A stretch of DNA of 64,000 bases from Candidatus Latescibacterota bacterium (GTDB lineage Bacteria > Latescibacterota > UBA2968 > GCA-2709665): contig OZ220733.1 of assembly GCA_965116875.1 (NCBI GenBank), forward strand, positions 3,360,001 to 3,424,000. Reading direction: 5' to 3'. The notes beneath the pieces were generated by a model. That model did not search any database, had not been told where the DNA came from, and saw only the letters and a program-made list of their open reading frames with translations. How positions within the stretch are numbered: position 1 is the first letter of the stretch; every line of letters begins with the position of its first letter. The position numbers and the translations under genes were made by a program. Positions 22,434 through 57,175 of the stretch are shown piece by piece.

Positions 22434-22716
22434 CGCGAACAGTTCCTTCTTTGGCCTTTTAACCTTGATTCGTAAGTTTTCGTGGACGTTAATTCGAATA
22501 TGTGCTAGTAAATAAAGGCGATTAGAAGGCGGATTACCAGGATACACCCGGTCACTGGAAGTGAACAGTTCCTCTCCCCGTGGCCCCTCAGATTCGGGTA
22601 GAAGGGAGACGGTAGAGGGGAGAGATTTCCTGCCTTATGGAGTTTCTTTTCCTGCCGGAGGCAAGAAGGAACAGAGTACCGGGCAAGGGTTTCTTCTACC
22701 GTCTACTATGTTAAAA

Positions 22717-23124
22717 GTCAAGAGAAAACGACCATATGTTGGCCTCAGATGCTGGGGTTACTCTACCATTATGCGTACCTATGCGACGCGTTCATTCCGA
22801 CACGCTCGACGAGCGTGTCGGAATGAACGAAATAAACGTCATTGAGGCCTGAATGGTTCCCTGCCGCACGACAGCAGTAGGGACCAGGCGTACGGTGTTC
22901 GCTGTTGGATGGCCTCAGATGCTGGGGCAACGCTACCAATCTACTATTCGTAGTCGCCTGGTGCAGGCGCTGACATGTCATTTATCCGGAGCCGTGCGAT
23001 AGGGGACGGGGCGTGCAAACTTCACTTACGTAGTACCCTGTGGGTCTACAAGACGGTAGGCGCCGTCCCCTGTACTCCGCGATCAAAAGCGGTGCGTGCG
23101 CAGGCATCTGTTGCGACCGTGTGT
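22717..23124 (-). ncRNA. Putative bridge/seek RNA, copy 1 (ends approximate)
   Basis: Non-coding region downstream of the recombinase; stem-internal loop-stem at 23001-23071 contains CUACCGUCU, identical to the target left half plus core. Confidence 0.8.
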
Positions 23125-24195
23125 TCACCCGGCGATGAGGCCCAGCTGATAGGGCTCTCCATTCAGCAGGATCCTGCGCATACGGCCCACCAGGATTCTG
23201 GCAACACCGACGATGGCGCGTTTGCCACCGGCACGCACCTTCAAGTGTTCGTATTTTTCCTGCATCGCGGGATCTTTCTCGATCAGGCGCCAGGCCGCCT
23301 GGGTAAGTAACGCACGTACAATGGGCTTTCCCTGGCGGGTGATGCGCCCGTGCCTCACGTGCTCGCCCGACGAGTGCTGGCCGGGCGTCAGCCCCACGTA
23401 GGCCGCCAGCGCATCTGCGTTCTTGAAGCGCGCCACATCCTGCAGTTCCAGGAGGATCTCCATGGCAGACAAGCATCCCACGCCCGGGATCGACGTCAGG
23501 ATCGCCACCCGATCCCGATACGTGTCTGTTTGCGCAAGCTCCCACAGCATTTTCGTCTGGCGCCCCACCAGTTCACACAGATCATCGTATTGTTCCAGCA
23601 TGTTCTCGAAGCTTTCCTGCGCACACGGCTCCCCCAGGTCCACACCACGCAGTGCGGTCACGAACTTGTCAGACCACGTCCCTCTGGATTCTTCGTGCAC
23701 ATACAAACCCATATACCGCAGTTCGGCCTTGATCCGTAGTTGTACACGCACCCGATCCTTGATGAACTGCCGGCGGCGACGACTCACTTGGCGGTGGCAC
23801 CGCTCTTCATGCGTCGGCACATAGATCGATGCCAGCAGGTCCGTCCTCAGATAATCCGCCAGCTTGAAGCTGTCGATGGAATCCGTCTTGACCCGATTCC
23901 CACTCTGGCTCGGGATCAGGCTCGGCGGCGTCACCGAAGCAGACACACCCATATCGACAAGAAAATCATATAACCAGAAACCGAAATAACCGGCTTCATA
24001 CACCGCAAAGATCTCTTTCGCTTCGCCATAACGACTCAACACCTTATCGATCGCCTCTGCTGTGCCTGCGATGCGATTGGAGAACAGTCGCAACCCATCC
24101 TCGTTGAGAATCGTCACGTGCCACTGCTTGAGATGCATGTCGATGCCCACGAAAAGATCCTTGCCATCCCACGCTTCAACGGTATACCTTGCCAT
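23125..24195 (-). CDS. IS110-family DEDD recombinase/transposase
   Basis: GIDMH, YEAG and KTD.ID (DEDD); IPGVG; GLTPGQHSSG catalytic-Ser loop; ATG at 24195 after AAGGAGG (track ORF starts 24237). Confidence 0.96.
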   Translation of the reverse strand: MARYTVEAWDGKDLFVGIDMHLKQWHVTILNEDGLRLFSNRIAGTAEAIDKVLSRYGEAKEIFAVYEAGYFGFWLYDFLVDMGVSASVTPPSLIPSQSGNRVKTDSIDSFKLADYLRTDLLASIYVPTHEERCHRQVSRRRRQFIKDRVRVQLRIKAELRYMGLYVHEESRGTWSDKFVTALRGVDLGEPCAQESFENMLEQYDDLCELVGRQTKMLWELAQTDTYRDRVAILTSIPGVGCLSAMEILLELQDVARFKNADALAAYVGLTPGQHSSGEHVRHGRITRQGKPIVRALLTQAAWRLIEKDPAMQEKYEHLKVRAGGKRAIVGVARILVGRMRRILLNGEPYQLGLIAG

Positions 24196-24296
24196 CACGA
24201 GCCTCCTTGTGAAAGTGTTTGTTACGGGCAAAGGCAAAGTATACTCTCACAAGCTGAGGCTCAACTCATTTTAACATAGTGACTTCCCTCTACCCT

Positions 24297-26696
24297 CTAC
24301 CCGCATTCAGGCCTTTTGTGGCCAATTTGACTGTAGTCTTTTTTCTGATTGAGGTTGTGCGGTGATCGGTTATCTGTGAGATCCGCGGTCTCCACCAGTT
24401 TCCACGTGTTTCCGCGATCCGGTGACATCATCAGCGAACGGCGGCTTTCCGGGTGGTCGTTCCTGTAGAACCAGTAGGTGGAGAAGTAGTCGTACGAGAG
24501 GAACAGCCGCCCGATGCGGTCTATAGTGAGCCGGTGGTAGAACACGCTGTATTCGGAGAACGGCGGCACGACGAGGACCCGGGGTTCCTGCCAGGCCCCT
24601 TCCGCGGGGCGATGCTGATGGGCCAGCGTCGCGTAGTTGCCGGCCGGGAAGTAGCTGGTGCCGTTCCACCAGAGTCTGAAGGCCGAATGCAGCGTGTCCT
24701 CCGGGTCGCAAACGAAGCCGATGTAGGTCTGCCGGGCGTCCGGCCATGCATCGCGGGGTTCCGTCCAGCCGGCGTCAGCCGTGTTCGAGCCCAGCGATCG
24801 TGCATACGGGAAGGGACATCCATGGGTTCCGGACAGCGCGTGCAGATAACCCCGGCTGTCCATGGTGATGCTGGGAGAATTGTGGATGTCGTTCGCGGGC
24901 GGACCGTAACCGACCAGTGCGGGCGCGCCCATCTGCCGCGTCTCCCTGTCGACGGTGGCGACGTACGTGGGCACGCCGGGGACGTCCTCGCCGGGGTCGG
25001 TCGCTTCGGCCCAGATGACGTTTACTCTGCCTTCTCTCGAGACAACCGAAGCGGGGATCCCGGAATGCTGGGAAAGGCCGATGCACCGATCGGAGACGAG
25101 TATCGGTTCGCCCAACGAAAGGCCGCGGGACGTCTTCTCGGGCAGGAAGAGCTCCAGGTCATTGACTTTTCGCCAGAACAGGCGCGCATCTTCCTCGGTG
25201 CGGGCGTAGCGGAGAACCGGAGGCGGTCCGTCACAGGAATTATGGCCGGTAAACCATTCGATATCGAAAGTACGCGGACAATCCTCTCTGCCGGGAATCG
25301 CGCATGCGGAGAAGGTGCGACCCTGGTCCGAGGAGTACAGCAGGTTGGGTTGACCGTTGACATTGGCTACAATATATAGTAGATTCTCCGAGTCGAAGGC
25401 AATCTTGGTGGATGCAGTTCCATCAGCGGCGTTGTCAATGCCGCGTACGGAACTTCCGAAGTCGGACTCGGTCCAGCGGCCGTCGCGCAAGGCGCTGATC
25501 CCTTTTTCGGTCCGTACGAATGGACGGTTTTCGAGATCGAAATAGATCTGGTTCTCTACGGGAAGATCGGGCACGAAACCGAACTGTGCGTTTTCATGTT
25601 CGTAGGGCTTCAATACCAGGGGCAGTCTGATGGGCCGCCGGACGGGTGAGGTTCCCGCCCTCAGCGTCAGCGTTGAATAGGTGGATATTTCCGGGTAGGT
25701 ATCGGACGTGGCCCTCAGCCGGCACGTAAGGACGTCATCTTCACCTGCCGAATCCGGCATGGCGTAACGGGCGGTGACGCGAGTGCGTTCCATTGGGCCC
25801 AGATCGACGGTGTCCGTGGAGAGCCGGACGGGGAGGGTGGATGCCCCGTCTGTTTCAGGCGTCAGCCGCACGGTTTGCGCCCTTTTGGAACTGTTTCTGA
25901 CGACGAAGTCGATCGCGCCGGACGCTCCGGCGCGGACGTACAGGTTTCGGTTGTAGGGTGTGAGCAGCCAGCGGCAGGCGTGGAGGGGGAAGAAGGATTC
26001 CGGGTTCGGGCTCCAGTACGACATGTTTACGTGGGGGTCGTCGTCGGACCAGCGCGTGACGCCGTCGACGTGGATAACGGCTTGCTGGACGGGCAGGTGG
26101 AGGCGCCAGGGCGTGGAACGGCGATCGTCTGCCGGAAACGTATGCGTGACGCGCCCGTTCCGGACCGCAAGGGTATCCACGGGGTTTCCGGCAGCATCGA
26201 ACACGGTCAGCGCTTCTACAGAATCGGGCAGGTCTTCGATTTCGACGTCGAACGTGCTCCGGGGTGGAAGAAAGCAAACGTTGCCGGGATGCTCCGGCGC
26301 GAGCAGGACGATGGGTTCCTGGTGCCTGGCGTCCTTGTGACCGCGGGACGTCTCGATGAGGTAATGCCTGCAGTTGGTCCGAAACGCCCAGACGATCTCC
26401 TCGCCGTACCGGTCATTAGATATCGTGATGTTGAGTTTGTAGATGCCTTTGTGGTTGACATGCGTCGACAACCGTGTATGTTGAACAGGGCCGTTGCCAT
26501 CGCCGGGACCGGAATCGGGAATCGTCACCTCCTGAATGACCCTTCGGTCCGGCGTAATCAGAAGCGCGCGCAGGTCCGTGCGGCGATTGTGGACGTTCCG
26601 GTCTCGTTTCTGCAGGTCAATGACAAGTTCACCGGGCTCGGCAAGAAAATACGCACCTCCCGCGCCGCCGATACCCCATCGAATCGTCGAATCCAT
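24297..26696 (-). CDS. BNR-repeat (sialidase-like propeller) protein
   Basis: YSSDQGRTF and SPDRGNTW Asp-boxes; DIHNSPSI..DS.GYLH motif; start MDST at 26696 preferred. Confidence 0.75.
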   Translation of the reverse strand: MDSTIRWGIGGAGGAYFLAEPGELVIDLQKRDRNVHNRRTDLRALLITPDRRVIQEVTIPDSGPGDGNGPVQHTRLSTHVNHKGIYKLNITISNDRYGEEIVWAFRTNCRHYLIETSRGHKDARHQEPIVLLAPEHPGNVCFLPPRSTFDVEIEDLPDSVEALTVFDAAGNPVDTLAVRNGRVTHTFPADDRRSTPWRLHLPVQQAVIHVDGVTRWSDDDPHVNMSYWSPNPESFFPLHACRWLLTPYNRNLYVRAGASGAIDFVVRNSSKRAQTVRLTPETDGASTLPVRLSTDTVDLGPMERTRVTARYAMPDSAGEDDVLTCRLRATSDTYPEISTYSTLTLRAGTSPVRRPIRLPLVLKPYEHENAQFGFVPDLPVENQIYFDLENRPFVRTEKGISALRDGRWTESDFGSSVRGIDNAADGTASTKIAFDSENLLYIVANVNGQPNLLYSSDQGRTFSACAIPGREDCPRTFDIEWFTGHNSCDGPPPVLRYARTEEDARLFWRKVNDLELFLPEKTSRGLSLGEPILVSDRCIGLSQHSGIPASVVSREGRVNVIWAEATDPGEDVPGVPTYVATVDRETRQMGAPALVGYGPPANDIHNSPSITMDSRGYLHALSGTHGCPFPYARSLGSNTADAGWTEPRDAWPDARQTYIGFVCDPEDTLHSAFRLWWNGTSYFPAGNYATLAHQHRPAEGAWQEPRVLVVPPFSEYSVFYHRLTIDRIGRLFLSYDYFSTYWFYRNDHPESRRSLMMSPDRGNTWKLVETADLTDNRSPHNLNQKKDYSQIGHKRPECG

Positions 26697-31183: not shown

Positions 31184-31312
31184 GGAAGGGCGGGTAGACG
31201 TGAGACGGAAGACGTGAGAGATTGCCTGCCTTGTCAGGTTTCTTCTCCTGCCGGAGGCAAGAAGGAATAGAGTATCGGGCAAGGGCTTCTTCTACCGTCT
31301 ACTATGTTAAAA

Positions 31313-31720
31313 GTCAAGAGAAAACGACCATATGTTGGCCTCAGATGCTGGGGTTACTCTACCATTATGCGTACCTATGCGACGCGTTCATTCCGACACG
31401 CTCGACGAGCGTGTCGGAATGAACGAAATAAACGTCATTGAGGCCTGAATGGTTCCCTGCCGCACGACAGCAGTAGGGACCAGGCGTACGGTGTTCGCTG
31501 TTGGATGGCCTCAGATGCTGGGGCAACGCTACCAATCTACTATTCGTAGTCGCCTGGTGCAGGCGCTGACATGTCATTTATCCGGAGCCGTGCGATAGGG
31601 GACGGGGCGTGCAAACTTCACTTACGTAGTACCCTGTGGGTCTACAAGACGGTAGGCGCCGTCCCCTGTACTCCGCGATCAAAAGCGGTGCGTGCGCAGG
31701 CATCTGTTGCGACCGTGTGT
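31313..31720 (-). ncRNA. Putative bridge/seek RNA, copy 2
   Basis: No difference seen from the copy 1 non-coding region. Confidence 0.8.
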
Positions 31721-32791
31721 TCACCCGGCGATGAGGCCCAGCTGATAGGGCTCTCCATTCAGCAGGATCCTGCGCATACGGCCCACCAGGATTCTGGCAA
31801 CACCGACGATGGCGCGTTTGCCACCGGCACGCACCTTCAAGTGTTCGTATTTTTTCTGCATCGCGGGATCTTTCTCGATCAGGCGCCAGGCCGCCTGGGT
31901 AAGTAACGCACGTACAATGGGCTTTCCCTGGCGGGTGATGCGCCCGTGCCTCACGTGCTCGCCCGACGAGTGCTGGCCGGGCGTCAGCCCCACGTAGGCC
32001 GCCAGCGCATCTGCGTTCTTGAAGCGCGCCACATCCTGCAGTTCCAGGAGGATCTCCATGGCAGACAAGCATCCCACGCCCGGGATCGACGTCAGGATCG
32101 CCACCCGATCCCGATACGTGTCTGTTTGCGCAAGCTCCCACAGCATTTTCGTCTGGCGCCCCACCAGTTCACACAGATCATCGTATTGTTCCAGCATGTT
32201 CTCGAAGCTTTCCTGCGCACACGGCTCCCCCAGGTCCACACCACGCAGTGCGGTCACGAACTTGTCAGACCACGTCCCTCTGGATTCTTCGTGCACATAC
32301 AAACCCATATACCGCAGTTCGGCCTTGATCCGTAGTTGTACACGCACCCGATCCTTGATGAACTGCCGGCGGCGACGACTCACTTGGCGGTGGCACCGCT
32401 CTTCATGCGTCGGCACATAGATCGATGCCAGCAGGTCCGTCCTCAGATAATCCGCCAGCTTGAAGCTGTCGATGGGATCCGTCTTGACCCGATTCCCACT
32501 CTGGCTCGGGATCAGGCTCGGCGGCGTCACCGAAGCAGACACACCCATATCGACAAGAAAATCATATAACCAGAAACCGAAATAACCGGCTTCATACACC
32601 GCAAAGATCTCTTTCGCTTCGCCATAACGACTCAACACCTTATCGATCGCCTCTGCTGTGCCTGCGATGCGATTGGAGAACAGTCGCAACCCATCCTCGT
32701 TGAGAATCGTCACGTGCCACTGCTTGAGATGCATGTCGATGCCCACGAAAAGATCCTTGCCATCCCACGCTTCAACGGTATACCTTGCCAT
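31721..32791 (-). CDS. IS110-family DEDD recombinase/transposase
   Basis: As copy 1; variants KTDPID and MQKKYE. Confidence 0.96.
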   Translation of the reverse strand: MARYTVEAWDGKDLFVGIDMHLKQWHVTILNEDGLRLFSNRIAGTAEAIDKVLSRYGEAKEIFAVYEAGYFGFWLYDFLVDMGVSASVTPPSLIPSQSGNRVKTDPIDSFKLADYLRTDLLASIYVPTHEERCHRQVSRRRRQFIKDRVRVQLRIKAELRYMGLYVHEESRGTWSDKFVTALRGVDLGEPCAQESFENMLEQYDDLCELVGRQTKMLWELAQTDTYRDRVAILTSIPGVGCLSAMEILLELQDVARFKNADALAAYVGLTPGQHSSGEHVRHGRITRQGKPIVRALLTQAAWRLIEKDPAMQKKYEHLKVRAGGKRAIVGVARILVGRMRRILLNGEPYQLGLIAG

Positions 32792-32908
32792 CACGAGCCT
32801 CCTTGTGAAAGTGTTTGTTACGGGCAAAGGCAAAGTATACTCTCACAAGCTGAGGCTCAACTCATTTTAACATAGTGACTTCCCTCTGCCGTCTCCCCGC
32901 ATTTCGGC

Positions 32909-43189: not shown

Positions 43190-44251
43190 ATGACACAACA
43201 GCAGATGGAATCGATGTGGTTTTACGTGGGCGGCGCCGGAATCTCGGTCTACCGTCTGGACCTTTCCACCGGGGACCTGGCGCACCGGAGTACGGTTTCG
43301 GAAGTGAAGAATCCTTCATTCCAGGCCATCCATCCGTCGAATCGGTTCCTTTACTCTGTAGCGGAAGTCAACGACGGCGGCGCGATATACGCGTTTGCGA
43401 TCGATCCGTCCACGGGTGCGTTGCGCTCGCTGAACCATCAGTCCTGCATGGGCGCGGGTCCCTGCCACGTGAGCGTGGACGCAACCGGACGAGTCGTGCT
43501 GGCGGCCAACTATTCCAGCGGCGGCGTGTCGGCGCTGCCCATCATGGAAGACGGCAGCCTGGGCGAGGCCACTTCCTTCTTTCAGCACGAGGGTTCCAGC
43601 GTGAATCCGGGCAGGCAGCAGGGGCCGCACGCGCATTCCATCACCATCGATCCTGGCAATCGATTCGCCGTCTCGGCAGATCTGGGAATCGATAAAGTGC
43701 TGGTGTACCGGCTGGATGCGGAGAAGCAGACGATAACGCCCAACGATCCGCCATGGGTGGACGTTCAGGCGGGCGCCGGACCCAGGCACTTCGCGTTTCA
43801 TCCCAACCGGAAACACGCCTATCTGATCAACGAGCTGGACAATACGGTCGTGGCGTACGCGTACGATGAAGATCGCGGGATCCTGGAGACCGAGCAGGTG
43901 ATTTCCACGTTACCCTCGGAATTCACCGATACCAGCTATTGCGCGGATATCCACGTGTCGTCGGACGGCCGCTTCGTGTACGGCTCGAACCGGGGGCACG
44001 ACAGCATCGTAATCTTCGAAGTCGACTCCGGTACCGGGAGGCTCTCGATTGTGGACTACGAATCAACCCGGGGCGAGTTTCCGCGCAATTTCGCGCTGGA
44101 TCCTTCGAGGCGGTTCCTGTTCGCCGCCAACCAGAATACGGACAATATCGTCACGTACCGGATCGACGCTCAGTCGGGGAGACTCACCGCGACCGGCCAT
44201 CAGGTGGAGACTCCGCAGCCGGTGTGCATCAACATGATCCCTGCCGGATAA
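43190..44251 (+). CDS. 6-phosphogluconolactonase-type lactonase (beta-propeller)
   Basis: ANY, HAH, DLGID, GPRH, SNRGHD and PRNF motifs. Confidence 0.92.
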   Translation: MTQQQMESMWFYVGGAGISVYRLDLSTGDLAHRSTVSEVKNPSFQAIHPSNRFLYSVAEVNDGGAIYAFAIDPSTGALRSLNHQSCMGAGPCHVSVDATGRVVLAANYSSGGVSALPIMEDGSLGEATSFFQHEGSSVNPGRQQGPHAHSITIDPGNRFAVSADLGIDKVLVYRLDAEKQTITPNDPPWVDVQAGAGPRHFAFHPNRKHAYLINELDNTVVAYAYDEDRGILETEQVISTLPSEFTDTSYCADIHVSSDGRFVYGSNRGHDSIVIFEVDSGTGRLSIVDYESTRGEFPRNFALDPSRRFLFAANQNTDNIVTYRIDAQSGRLTATGHQVETPQPVCINMIPAG

Positions 44252-55297: not shown

Positions 55298-55461
55298 CCG
55301 CCTTCGGGACCTCTACCCCGGCCCCACAGAAGCGGGTAGACGTTAGACGGGAGAGATTACCTGCCTTGTGAGGATTTCCTTCGCGCCGAAGGCAAGGAGG
55401 GAAAACATCCCGGGCAAGGATTTCTTCTACCGTCTCGCCTCTACCGTCTACTATGTTAAAA

Positions 55462-55869
55462 GTCAAGAGAAAACGACCATATGTTGGCCTCAGATGCTGG
55501 GGTTACTCTACCATTATGCGTACCTATGCGACGCGTTCATTCTGACACGCTCGTCGAGCGTGTCAGAATGAACGAAATAAACGTCATTGAGGCCTGAATG
55601 GTTCCCTGCCGCACGACAGCAGTAGGGACCAGGCGTACGGTGTTCTCTGTTGGATGGCCTCAGATGCTGGGGCAACGCTACCAATCTACTATTCGTAGTC
55701 GCCTGGTGCAGGCGCTGACATGTCATTTATCCGGAGCCGTGCGATAGGGGACGGGGCGTGCAAACTTCACTTACGTAGTACCCTGTGGGTCTACAAGACG
55801 GTAGGCGCCGTCCCCTGTACTCCGCGATCAAAAGCGGTGCGTGCGCAGGCATCTGTTGCGACCGTGTGT
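55462..55869 (-). ncRNA. Putative bridge/seek RNA, copy 3
   Basis: Same guide segments; compensatory pair change in the long hairpin. Confidence 0.8.
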
Positions 55870-56940
55870 TCACCCGGCGATGAGGCCCAGCTGATAGGGC
55901 TCTCCATTCAGCAGGATCCTGCGCATACGGCCCACCAGGATTCTGGCAACACCGACGATGGCGCGTTTGCCACCGGCACGCACCTTCAAGTGTTCGTATT
56001 TTTCCTGCATCGCGGGATCTTTCTCGATCAGGCGCCAGGCCGCCTGGGTAAGTAACGCACGTACAATGGGCTTTCCCTGGCGGGTGATGCGCCCGTGCCT
56101 CACGTGCTCGCCCGACGAGTGCTGGCCGGGCGTCAGCCCCACGTAGGCCGCCAGCGCATCTGCGTTCTTGAAGCGCGCCACATCCTGCAGTTCCAGGAGG
56201 ATCTCCATGGCAGACAAGCATCCCACGCCCGGGATCGACGTCAGGATCGCCACCCGATCCCGATACGTGTCTGTTTGCGCAAGCTCCCACAGCATTTTCG
56301 TCTGGCGCCCCACCAGTTCACACAGATCATCGTATTGTTCCAGCATGTTCTCGAAGCTTTCCTGCGCACACGGCTCCCCCAGGTCCACACCACGCAGTGC
56401 GGTCACGAACTTGTCAGACCACGTCCCTCTGGATTCTTCGTGCACATACAAACCCATATACCGCAGTTCGGCCTTGATCCGTAGTTGTACACGCACCCGA
56501 TCCTTGATGAACTGCCGGCGGCGACGACTCACCTGGCGGTGGCACCGCTCTTCATGCGTCGGCACATAGATCGATGTCAGAAGGCCTGTCCTCAGATAAT
56601 CCGCCAGCTTGAAGCTGTCGATGGGATCCGTCTTGACCCGATTCCCACTCTGGCTCGGGATCAGGCTCGGCGGCGTCACCGAAGCAGACACACCCATATC
56701 GACAAGAAAATCATATAACCAGAAACCGAAATAACCGGCTTCATACACCGCAAAGATCTCTTTCGCTTCGCCATAACGACTCAACACCTTATCGATCGCC
56801 TCTGCTGTGCCTGCGATGCGATTGGAGAACAGTCGCAACCCATCCTCGTTGAGAATCGTCACGTGCCACTGCTTGAGATGCATGTCGATGCCCACGAAAA
56901 GATCCTTGCCATCCCACGCTTCAACGGTATACCTTGCCAT
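55870..56940 (-). CDS. IS110-family DEDD recombinase/transposase
   Basis: As copy 1; variants KTDPID and RTGLLTS. Confidence 0.96.
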   Translation of the reverse strand: MARYTVEAWDGKDLFVGIDMHLKQWHVTILNEDGLRLFSNRIAGTAEAIDKVLSRYGEAKEIFAVYEAGYFGFWLYDFLVDMGVSASVTPPSLIPSQSGNRVKTDPIDSFKLADYLRTGLLTSIYVPTHEERCHRQVSRRRRQFIKDRVRVQLRIKAELRYMGLYVHEESRGTWSDKFVTALRGVDLGEPCAQESFENMLEQYDDLCELVGRQTKMLWELAQTDTYRDRVAILTSIPGVGCLSAMEILLELQDVARFKNADALAAYVGLTPGQHSSGEHVRHGRITRQGKPIVRALLTQAAWRLIEKDPAMQEKYEHLKVRAGGKRAIVGVARILVGRMRRILLNGEPYQLGLIAG

Positions 56941-57175
56941 CACGAGCCTCCTTGTGAAAGTGTTTGTTACGGGCAAAGGCAAAGTATACTCTCACAAGCT
57001 GAGGCTCAACTCATTTTAACATAGTGACTTCCCTCTTATCTCTACCCGCATTCCGGCTTTTTTGGCCAATATGTTTTTTTTCAATTGAGGTCTAATTGCA
57101 GCGAAGTCCCGGCGTGTCCAGATGCCGGGACTCGTCTTTGATGTGTGAACGCGATCGCTGACGGAGGGGCAATCG

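Follow-up and report, generated by a model that had tools for sequence, protein, structure and literature searches.

A putative two-loop guide RNA in the right end of an IS110-superfamily element of IS1111 layout from a Latescibacterota genome

What is the 71-nt hairpin that lies behind a recombinase gene in a Latescibacterota genome, and does it read the site into which that gene has been inserted? The window analysed here is a 64,000-nt stretch of DNA from Candidatus Latescibacterota bacterium (assembly GCA_965116875.1, contig OZ220733.1, positions 3,360,001 to 3,424,000 of the forward strand), and positions below are those of the window unless the genome is named. An earlier note on this DNA had proposed that the hairpin is the target-binding loop of a bridge RNA. 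We conclude that the region 22705–24284 is very probably an IS110-superfamily element of IS1111 layout, with a DEDD/serine recombinase and a right end that encodes a two-loop guide RNA (bridge RNA or seekRNA), in which the 71-nt hairpin would be the target-binding loop. This loop is readable from the raw sequence alone.

The hairpin begins 54 nt past the stop codon of the recombinase gene, in the long 3′ non-coding end. On the minus strand it reads AGGGGACGG-CGC-CUACCGUCU-UGUAGACCC-ACA-GGGUACUACG-UA-AGUGAAG-UUUGCACGCC-CCGUCCCCU, letter for letter the layout given in the earlier note. In the RNAfold structure (−29.3 kcal/mol) a 9-bp outer stem leads through a large internal loop to an inner hairpin. 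Compared with relatives, the lineage of the window has an outer stem with a longer 3′ strand, and the conserved AG-UUUGC after the 3′ guide is therefore unpaired. Both sides of the internal loop match the DNA around the element as had been claimed (Table 1). The 5′ side, CUACCGUCU, is identical to the plus-strand letters abutting the right end of the element and complementary to recombinase-sense AG-ACGGTAG, in both cases at 9/9. The 3′ side, AGUGAAG, is the reverse complement of plus-strand CTTCCCT, the core plus the other target half, at 6/7. The sequence therefore predicts an internal-loop RNA whose sides match both target strands around a common core, the arrangement that characterizes bridge RNAs and seekRNAs. 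The earlier note had also placed the strand that the left guide matches antisense to the recombinase gene; this is correct, and it is explained by the guide order of IS1111 elements, in which the complement of the top strand comes first.

The recombinase identifies the element. The 356-aa protein matches PF01548 (DEDD_Tnp_IS110; 3.5e-19) and PF02371 (Transposase_20; 5.2e-27), and the N-terminal DEDD RuvC-like and C-terminal Transposase_20 domains that together mark the IS110 superfamily are both present. NCBIfam model NF033542 (‘IS110 family RNA-guided transposase’) matches with 216 bits, above its cut-off of 140. Remote alignments with HMMER reach the IS621 transposase (8wt6; E 1.5e-11) and the ISCro4 transposase (E 1.9e-11); the GID, KTDxxD and SG positions line up in these alignments (for IS621, GIDM/GIDT, KTDSIDS/KTDTVDA and TPGQHSSG/TPRRYESG). 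The stretch GLTPGQHSSG fits the GL-P----SG motif described in PMC11187229. Its identity to plasmid-borne IS110-family genes does not exceed 41%, and is about 29–31% for the ISSso6 and ISEc45 families.

The ends of the element were placed where the flanks of six copies stop aligning, and the same ends are backed by uninterrupted paralogous sites. In recombinase sense each copy reads left flank-AG-TCACTATGTTAAAATG ... CTTGACTTTTAACATAGT-AG-right flank. Only the dinucleotide AG (plus-strand CT) is common to both junctions, indicating that there is no target duplication beyond the crossover core. The uninterrupted 14-mer AGGGAAGACGGTAG has four further occurrences in the genome, one of which (near 3826258) has both flanks resembling those of the copy studied here, c1; uninterrupted 14-mers number four for one site class and nine for the other. 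Features reported for the IS1111 group are found throughout this layout: a perfect subterminal inverted repeat of 12 bp, within the 7–17 bp given in PMC11208160, separated from the left terminus by TC and the core; a longer non-coding end downstream of the recombinase (420 nt versus 89 nt) that holds the predicted RNA; and the guide order, with CUACCGUCU (the complement of recombinase-sense AGACGGTAG) lying 5′ of the sense-identical AGUGAAG. The class is assigned from these features of layout.

The 5.45-Mb genome holds six full-length copies (identity 100/100/100/99/95/89%). Four are at least 99% alike, and c5 and c6 are 95% and 89% identical; c1, c2 and c4 lie in the window and c3, c5 and c6 outside it (c5 at genome 1776392–1777970, c6 at 5315225–5316803). 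The recombinase frame is open in all six. The element is active-looking.

How much weight can the match between hairpin and flank bear? The 9-mer occurs nine times in the window against 0.29 expected (0/100 shuffles reach nine), namely in the guides of the three element copies, in the three flanks abutting them and in three other copies of a heptamer repeat of the host. The target motif is repeated so commonly in the genome that a match close by is not decisive alone. The decisive evidence is that the match abuts the element at all three copies in the window and that guide and flank co-vary across the family.

To define that family we collected relatives of the recombinase: 7 loci in species-representative genomes (46–53% identity) and 38 on metagenome contigs (43–64%, none above 64%). 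Among 168 genomes of the same phylum, 6 have a match, that of the window included, and none of the 14 other species of the genus has one. The region behind the recombinase gene gave 35 distinct homologous regions, 30 of which were aligned; those left out are a near-duplicate (L021, of L027), a sequence containing N (L024), one with a duplicated first loop that aligned badly (L037) and two partial anchors in L046. The first loop has the consensus GGGGnACGGCG-[variable]-CUGUG-hairpin-ACCACGU-[variable]-AG-UUUGCC..CCCC, followed by a second loop, CCUCGGAU-nnAUUACAUGUGG-hairpin-ACCACGAAUAG-n-AGACUGG. RNAalifold finds four features in the alignment. In the first loop these are the outer stem and the base of the inner hairpin; the others are a short closing stem and the inner hairpin of the second loop. 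Paired cells amount to 85.0%, compared with 73.0% in column shuffles (0/500 reach the observed value) and 36–47% with slid partners. Both-side (compensatory) changes occur at 9 of the 11 pairs of the first-loop outer stem, which is 90% paired, and the inner-hairpin base of that loop is 97.5% paired. A stem enclosing the first hairpin (columns 15–19 with 119–123), the alternative to the closing stem of the second loop, is 76.5% paired, with compensatory changes at three of its five pairs. A covariance model built from the alignment has three matches in the window and six in the genome, every one inside a copy of the element; thus, the genome has no solo RNA genes. Rfam gave no match over the whole window at gathering thresholds, and on 22650–23200 chance-level matches alone, to a microRNA model and on a 41-nt palindrome.

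The two variable sides of the first loop follow the flanks of their own elements. Guides were taken from fixed alignment columns and flanks were located by conserved end motifs, counting only contigs that reach the flank (24 distinct right pairs and 17 left pairs). The 5′ side matches the reverse complement of the 7-nt right flank at a mean of 5.9/7 in cognate pairs (n = 24; 8 at 7/7 and 15 at 6/7 or better), compared with 3.4/7 in non-cognate pairs, 19 of 550 of which reach 6/7 or better. The 3′ side (5 nt before its AG) matches the 5-nt left flank at 4.2/5 in cognate pairs (n = 17) and 1.2/5 in non-cognate pairs. None of 20000 permutations was as good for either guide. Individual relatives illustrate this well: the guide AUGAUAUCU of L013 fits its own flank at 9/9 and its AUUGC-AG at 7/7, and UGUCAUCCU of L027, from a genome of the same class, fits at 9/9. 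Compensatory stems in 30 relatives, together with loop sides that both follow their own flanks, bear out the guide layout of a bridge RNA that the earlier note had recognized.

One element among the relatives is present at two sites with an identical RNA module (metagenome contigs L062 and L064). Its 5′ guide fits one flank only; at the other site the flank agrees with the guide of the related element in L057. This case parallels that of copy c3 below and hints at either cross-guidance or a guide change after insertion.

A second loop, predicted to bind the donor, follows the first. It is kept in 30/30 aligned relatives, and its inner hairpin has compensatory changes. The 3′ side, AAUAG[N]AG, matches the right-end terminus CATAG[N] plus the core, and the variable base agrees in 21/21 loci (9 C, 7 T and 5 G), counting loci whose right end was located without using N. 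The 5′ side, U[N]AC, is complementary to G-T[N]A of the left-end terminus AG-T[N]AC, with the variable base in agreement in 21 of 22 loci; over the wider 5′ side the match is partial. The second loop thus appears to read the joined ends of its own element, with 5′ pairing over about 4–5 nt. A competing explanation is that the first hairpin alone constitutes the active RNA, a short seekRNA that finds the target, with the protein recognizing the ends through the subterminal repeats and flanks and the second loop lying outside the active molecule. This would agree with the IS1111 RNA described in PMC11187229 as co-purifying with its transposase, which is mostly short (82–96 nt, with both target matches inside, longer forms being rarer), and with the modest length of the 5′ donor guide and a closing stem (UCGG/CUGG in the alignment) that is 99% paired and has no both-side change. 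However, it leaves unexplained why the second loop is kept in every aligned relative, and the agreement of its variable bases with their own termini is hard to explain without base-pairing to the donor. Donor-binding nucleotides were, moreover, predicted in IS1111 RNAs by Durrant et al. (PMC11208160). We therefore consider a target-finding hairpin without a working donor loop unlikely.

A hairpin placed so shortly behind a stop codon, and rich in G+C, might instead be a terminator, an attenuator or an mRNA-stabilizing stem-loop at the 3′ end of the recombinase message, with incidental matches to the flanks. But no U-run follows the stem, a terminator scan made no call there, and a structure of this kind would not predict loop bases that vary with the site of insertion between stems that compensatory changes preserve; we judge this very improbable. 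Least probable of all is that the 9-mer match is a by-product of the host repeat, picked up or resembled by the element: AGACGGTAG is part of an abundant heptamer repeat (159 occurrences in the genome, and 245 of AGACGGGAG) and three of the window 9-mers are neither guide nor abutting flank, yet in relatives from unrelated metagenomes and genomes the guides differ widely, each fitting its own flanks, the match stands in a fixed register beside the core at all copies, and a one-base change in the guide tracks the target.

That one-base change is seen among the six copies themselves. Copies c1, c2 and c4 carry the guide CUACCGUCU and abut AG-ACGGTAG, and c5 and c6 carry CUCCCGUCU and abut AG-ACGGGAG, so that the single difference between the guides is mirrored by a single difference between the targets. 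Of the 159 free AGACGGTAG sites in the genome, 4 belong to the subclass with the left half AG.GA, as do all three ACGGTAG-class insertions (4 free and 3 occupied sites), which supports the 3′ side as a working guide in c1.

Several observations weigh against a guide RNA that works as we propose. The fold of the single sequence is just modestly better than those of shuffles (z −2.58; 2/200 as good). The aligned sequences are related, and the shuffle and permutation figures therefore overstate independence, although the slid-partner control is unaffected by shared ancestry. Among the 24 cognate 5′-guide pairs, 9 match at just 4–5 of 7 positions. Within the genome, c3 has an ACGGTAG-type guide in an ACGGGAG-type site, 750 bp from c5, and in c5 and c6 the 3′ guides, AGUUG-AG and GAUGA-AG, agree with the left flank of the respective copy at just 1/5 and 2/5. 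The 5′ donor guide of 4–5 nt and the closing stem without covariation count here as well. Finally, a scan for sigma-70-like promoters over 22650–24350 found no site.

Three 3′-guide alleles coexist in this genome (AGUGA, AGUUG and GAUGA, each before AG). All three have U as the third base, a mismatch at the sites observed, and the best fit of the c5 allele is AG.TG-AG-ACGGGAG, a class with 12 free sites. The AGUUG bases also occur, at 23022–23023, in a contig from a DNA run of another organism (X4) that covers the whole element with 22 differences. We tentatively suggest, as a possibility somewhat short of an even chance, that the copies form a natural retargeting series. In this series the older c6 and c5, with guide CUCCCGUCU and sites in a ~200-bp repeat (...GAGA-AG-ACGGGAG), would have been followed by a C to A change giving CUACCGUCU, four near-identical copies of which then spread into AGGGA-AG-ACGGTAG heptamer arrays, and the 3′ guide of c5 would have drifted to a third site class. 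If so, c3 would show either that the guide RNA of one copy can direct the circle of a diverged copy in trans or that a mismatch in the distal part of the guide does not prevent insertion.

Short tandem heptamer arrays of AGA[CG]G[GT][GTA] (AGACGGT, AGACGGG, AGAGGGT and others) abound genome-wide, with 141 arrays of at least three units compared with 1 for a reversed-motif control; examples in the window lie at 22588–22620, 24283–24303, 31196–31216, 43249–43257 and 55427–55449. The arrays are often followed by AGAAGAAAYCCTTGCCCGG and are set as inverted arms around a central segment. This heptamer element, which resembles repetitive extragenic (REP) sequences, is the insertion target of c1, c2 and c4. 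The second target class, GAGA-AG-ACGGGAG, sits in the different repeat of ~200 bp, which has an internal duplication of TCTTCGCTCCGCTNYGAATGACA and is found at C1:1776037-1792912 (five), 964538, 3107094, 3536023 and 4398698. The five free copies within 17 kb lie beside c3 and c5; inspection of this cluster, by eye only, gave no clear sign of integron attC sites.

The right end of the window element is longer than those of its relatives (~200–300 nt), with ~165 nt more between the RNA module and the terminus (22735–22935, minus strand). The extra stretch is flanked by two copies of GGTAG.G...CCCCAGCATCTGAGGCC, holds a perfect 41-nt palindrome (about 22789–22829) and appears to have arisen by insertion or duplication. 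Variation of other kinds occurs in relatives. In L037 and L068 the donor loop is preceded by two first-loop-like units in tandem, which share their 5′ guide (~60–330 nt past the recombinase stop). L046 (1139–1331, 4063–4255) has a full element plus two extra donor-loop anchors, one of which is a partial copy with the same donor-loop region and downstream part as the full element.

Sequencing runs were also compared with the element. A 531-nt contig from a sponge metatranscriptome library (run X1) spans 23759–24289 with 4 differences; it includes the left end and a 5′ portion of the recombinase gene and ends before the RNA module. DNA carry-over is possible in this library, and assembled contigs are by nature no proof of transcription. 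The run contained 26% of sampled words, and its contigs reach just 23759–24289 plus flanking repeats. A contig from a DNA run (X3) jumps exactly 1580 bases, from 22702 to 24283 (depth 2.9, side 35). We did not count it as excision, because joints that are 88% alike can derive from paralogous empty sites; several other joints in DNA runs carry unrelated letters in between.

Table 1 Positions of the element, its copies and the predicted parts of the guide RNA in the window.
Feature	Position	Strand	Details
Target-binding loop	23001..23071	-	Outer stem 23071-23063 with 23009-23001, internal loop, inner hairpin 23050-23029
5′ target guide CUACCGUCU	23051..23059	-	Predicted to pair with recombinase-sense core AG + right flank ACGGTAG
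3′ target guide AGUGA+AG	23020..23026	-	Compared with recombinase-sense left flank AGGGA + core AG, 6/7; predicted to pair with opposite strand
Target half-site + core CTACCGT-CT	22696..22704	+	Adjoins element right end
Core + other target half-site CT-TCCCT	24283..24289	+	Adjoins element left end
Second loop, predicted donor-binding	22936..22989	-	Closing CCGG/UUGG; 5′ side AUAAAUGACAUGUCA; inner hairpin 22970-22949; 3′ side AAUAGUAG
5′ donor guide core UGAC (predicted)	22977..22980	-	Complementary to GTCA at left-end terminus (AG-TCAC...)
3′ donor guide AAUAGUAG (predicted)	22941..22948	-	Equals right-end terminus CATAGT + core AG
Conserved RNA module	23081-22918	-	Alignment of 30 distinct homologous regions
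Recombinase/transposase coding sequence, 356 aa	23125..24195	-	ATG behind AGGAGG ribosome-binding site
Insertion sequence copy c1	22705..24284	-	1580 bp including one AG core copy; 89-nt left end, recombinase gene, 420-nt right end
Left subterminal inverted repeat	24269..24280		ACTATGTTAAAA in recombinase sense
Right subterminal inverted repeat	22705..22716		ACTATGTTAAAA on plus strand
TTGACT, candidate -35	22716..22721	-	Would face TATGTT (24278-24273) over 17 nt in joined circle; from sequence
Copy c2	31301..32880	-	Within window; RNA module 31514-31677
Copy c4	55450..57029	-	Within window; RNA module 55663-55826

How might such an RNA direct insertion? We hypothesize that the 5′ side of the first loop, CUACCGU-CU, pairs with the recombinase-sense target strand (core AG plus ACGGTAG) and that AGUGA-AG, on the 3′ side, does so with the core and the other half-site on the opposite strand. 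The recombinase would thereby be placed on the dinucleotide core of the 14-bp site AGGGA-AG-ACGGTAG in the host heptamer repeat. As in the published mechanism of the family, the element would excise as a circle, with a junction expected to read ...CATAGT-AG-TCACTATG.... The second loop would hold these joined ends, UGAC pairing with the left end and AAUAGUAG matching the right end plus core. The RNA, presumably produced from the right end and bound by the recombinase, would then bridge the excised circle and the target, and strands would be exchanged at the AG/CT core without target duplication. Joining of the ends would also bring TTGACT and TATGTT to within 17 nt of each other, a promoter-like pair that would face the recombinase gene. 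A junction promoter is known for IS1111/IS110-type elements according to PMC11187229, and the right ends of relatives repeatedly show CTTGAC, the left ends ACTATG(T/A)T.

The known working of such elements is unchanged by this finding. What it adds is a predicted subfamily of IS1111-type guide RNAs with ~30 distinct members, two matching internal loops and one scaffold, in which natural covariation reveals which loop bases appear to read the target and which the donor. Orthologues of this kind, distant from IS621 and ISCro4, offer starting material for programmable recombinases. Six copies with three guide alleles in two or three site classes amount to a small natural experiment on how one-base guide changes may open new sites.

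The element is, as judged from its sequence and with ISfinder references outside the comparison, a new and unnamed member of an already described kind. RNA-guided elements of the IS1111 type were described in 2024 (PMC11187229, PMC11208160). The group is characterized by long right ends and longer subterminal repeats, and a bridge RNA was predicted in 93.0% of its elements, in the vast majority in the right end (PMC11208160). In experiments on IS1111 members, the downstream non-coding region yields a seekRNA with two target matches, in which the complement of the top strand lies 5′ of that of the bottom strand, the reverse of the order in IS110 and IS621 (PMC11187229). The seekRNA and bridge RNA systems of ISEc11, ISPa11, ISKpn4 and ISPst6, as presented in these two papers, have the same GL-P----SG DEDD recombinase, subterminal repeats and a downstream RNA-encoding end. 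They likewise have two short segments that match opposite target strands, overlap at the insertion point and stand in the same order, and a site-specific target inside a host repeat. The window element differs from them in a recombinase far from any named element among the plasmid-borne IS110-family genes compared, and in the ~165-nt insert of its right end. Whereas many IS1111 RNAs are described in PMC11208160 as having donor nucleotides in a multiloop, here we predict two simple internal loops on a GUG-hairpin-ACCACG scaffold.

The IS621 bridge RNA (8wt6–8wt9) likewise has a target loop and a donor loop, 5′ and 3′ guides on opposite strands and a common dinucleotide core, which is also CT/AG, and the recombinases align, the serine–glycine position included. 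However, the RNA of IS621 lies in the left end, whereas here it is predicted to come from the right end, behind the gene. Relative to the gene, the two guides also read the strands in the opposite order; the window element has long inverted repeats, and its protein is only remotely similar. Finally, ISPpu9 of Pseudomonas putida, an IS110-family element described in PMC12288879, is likewise multi-copy, inserted in REP sequences of its host and followed by an RNA gene. We liken it to the window element by that description, not by sequence; ISPpu9 has extra solo copies of its RNA gene, whereas here the predicted RNA is confined to the six copies of the element.

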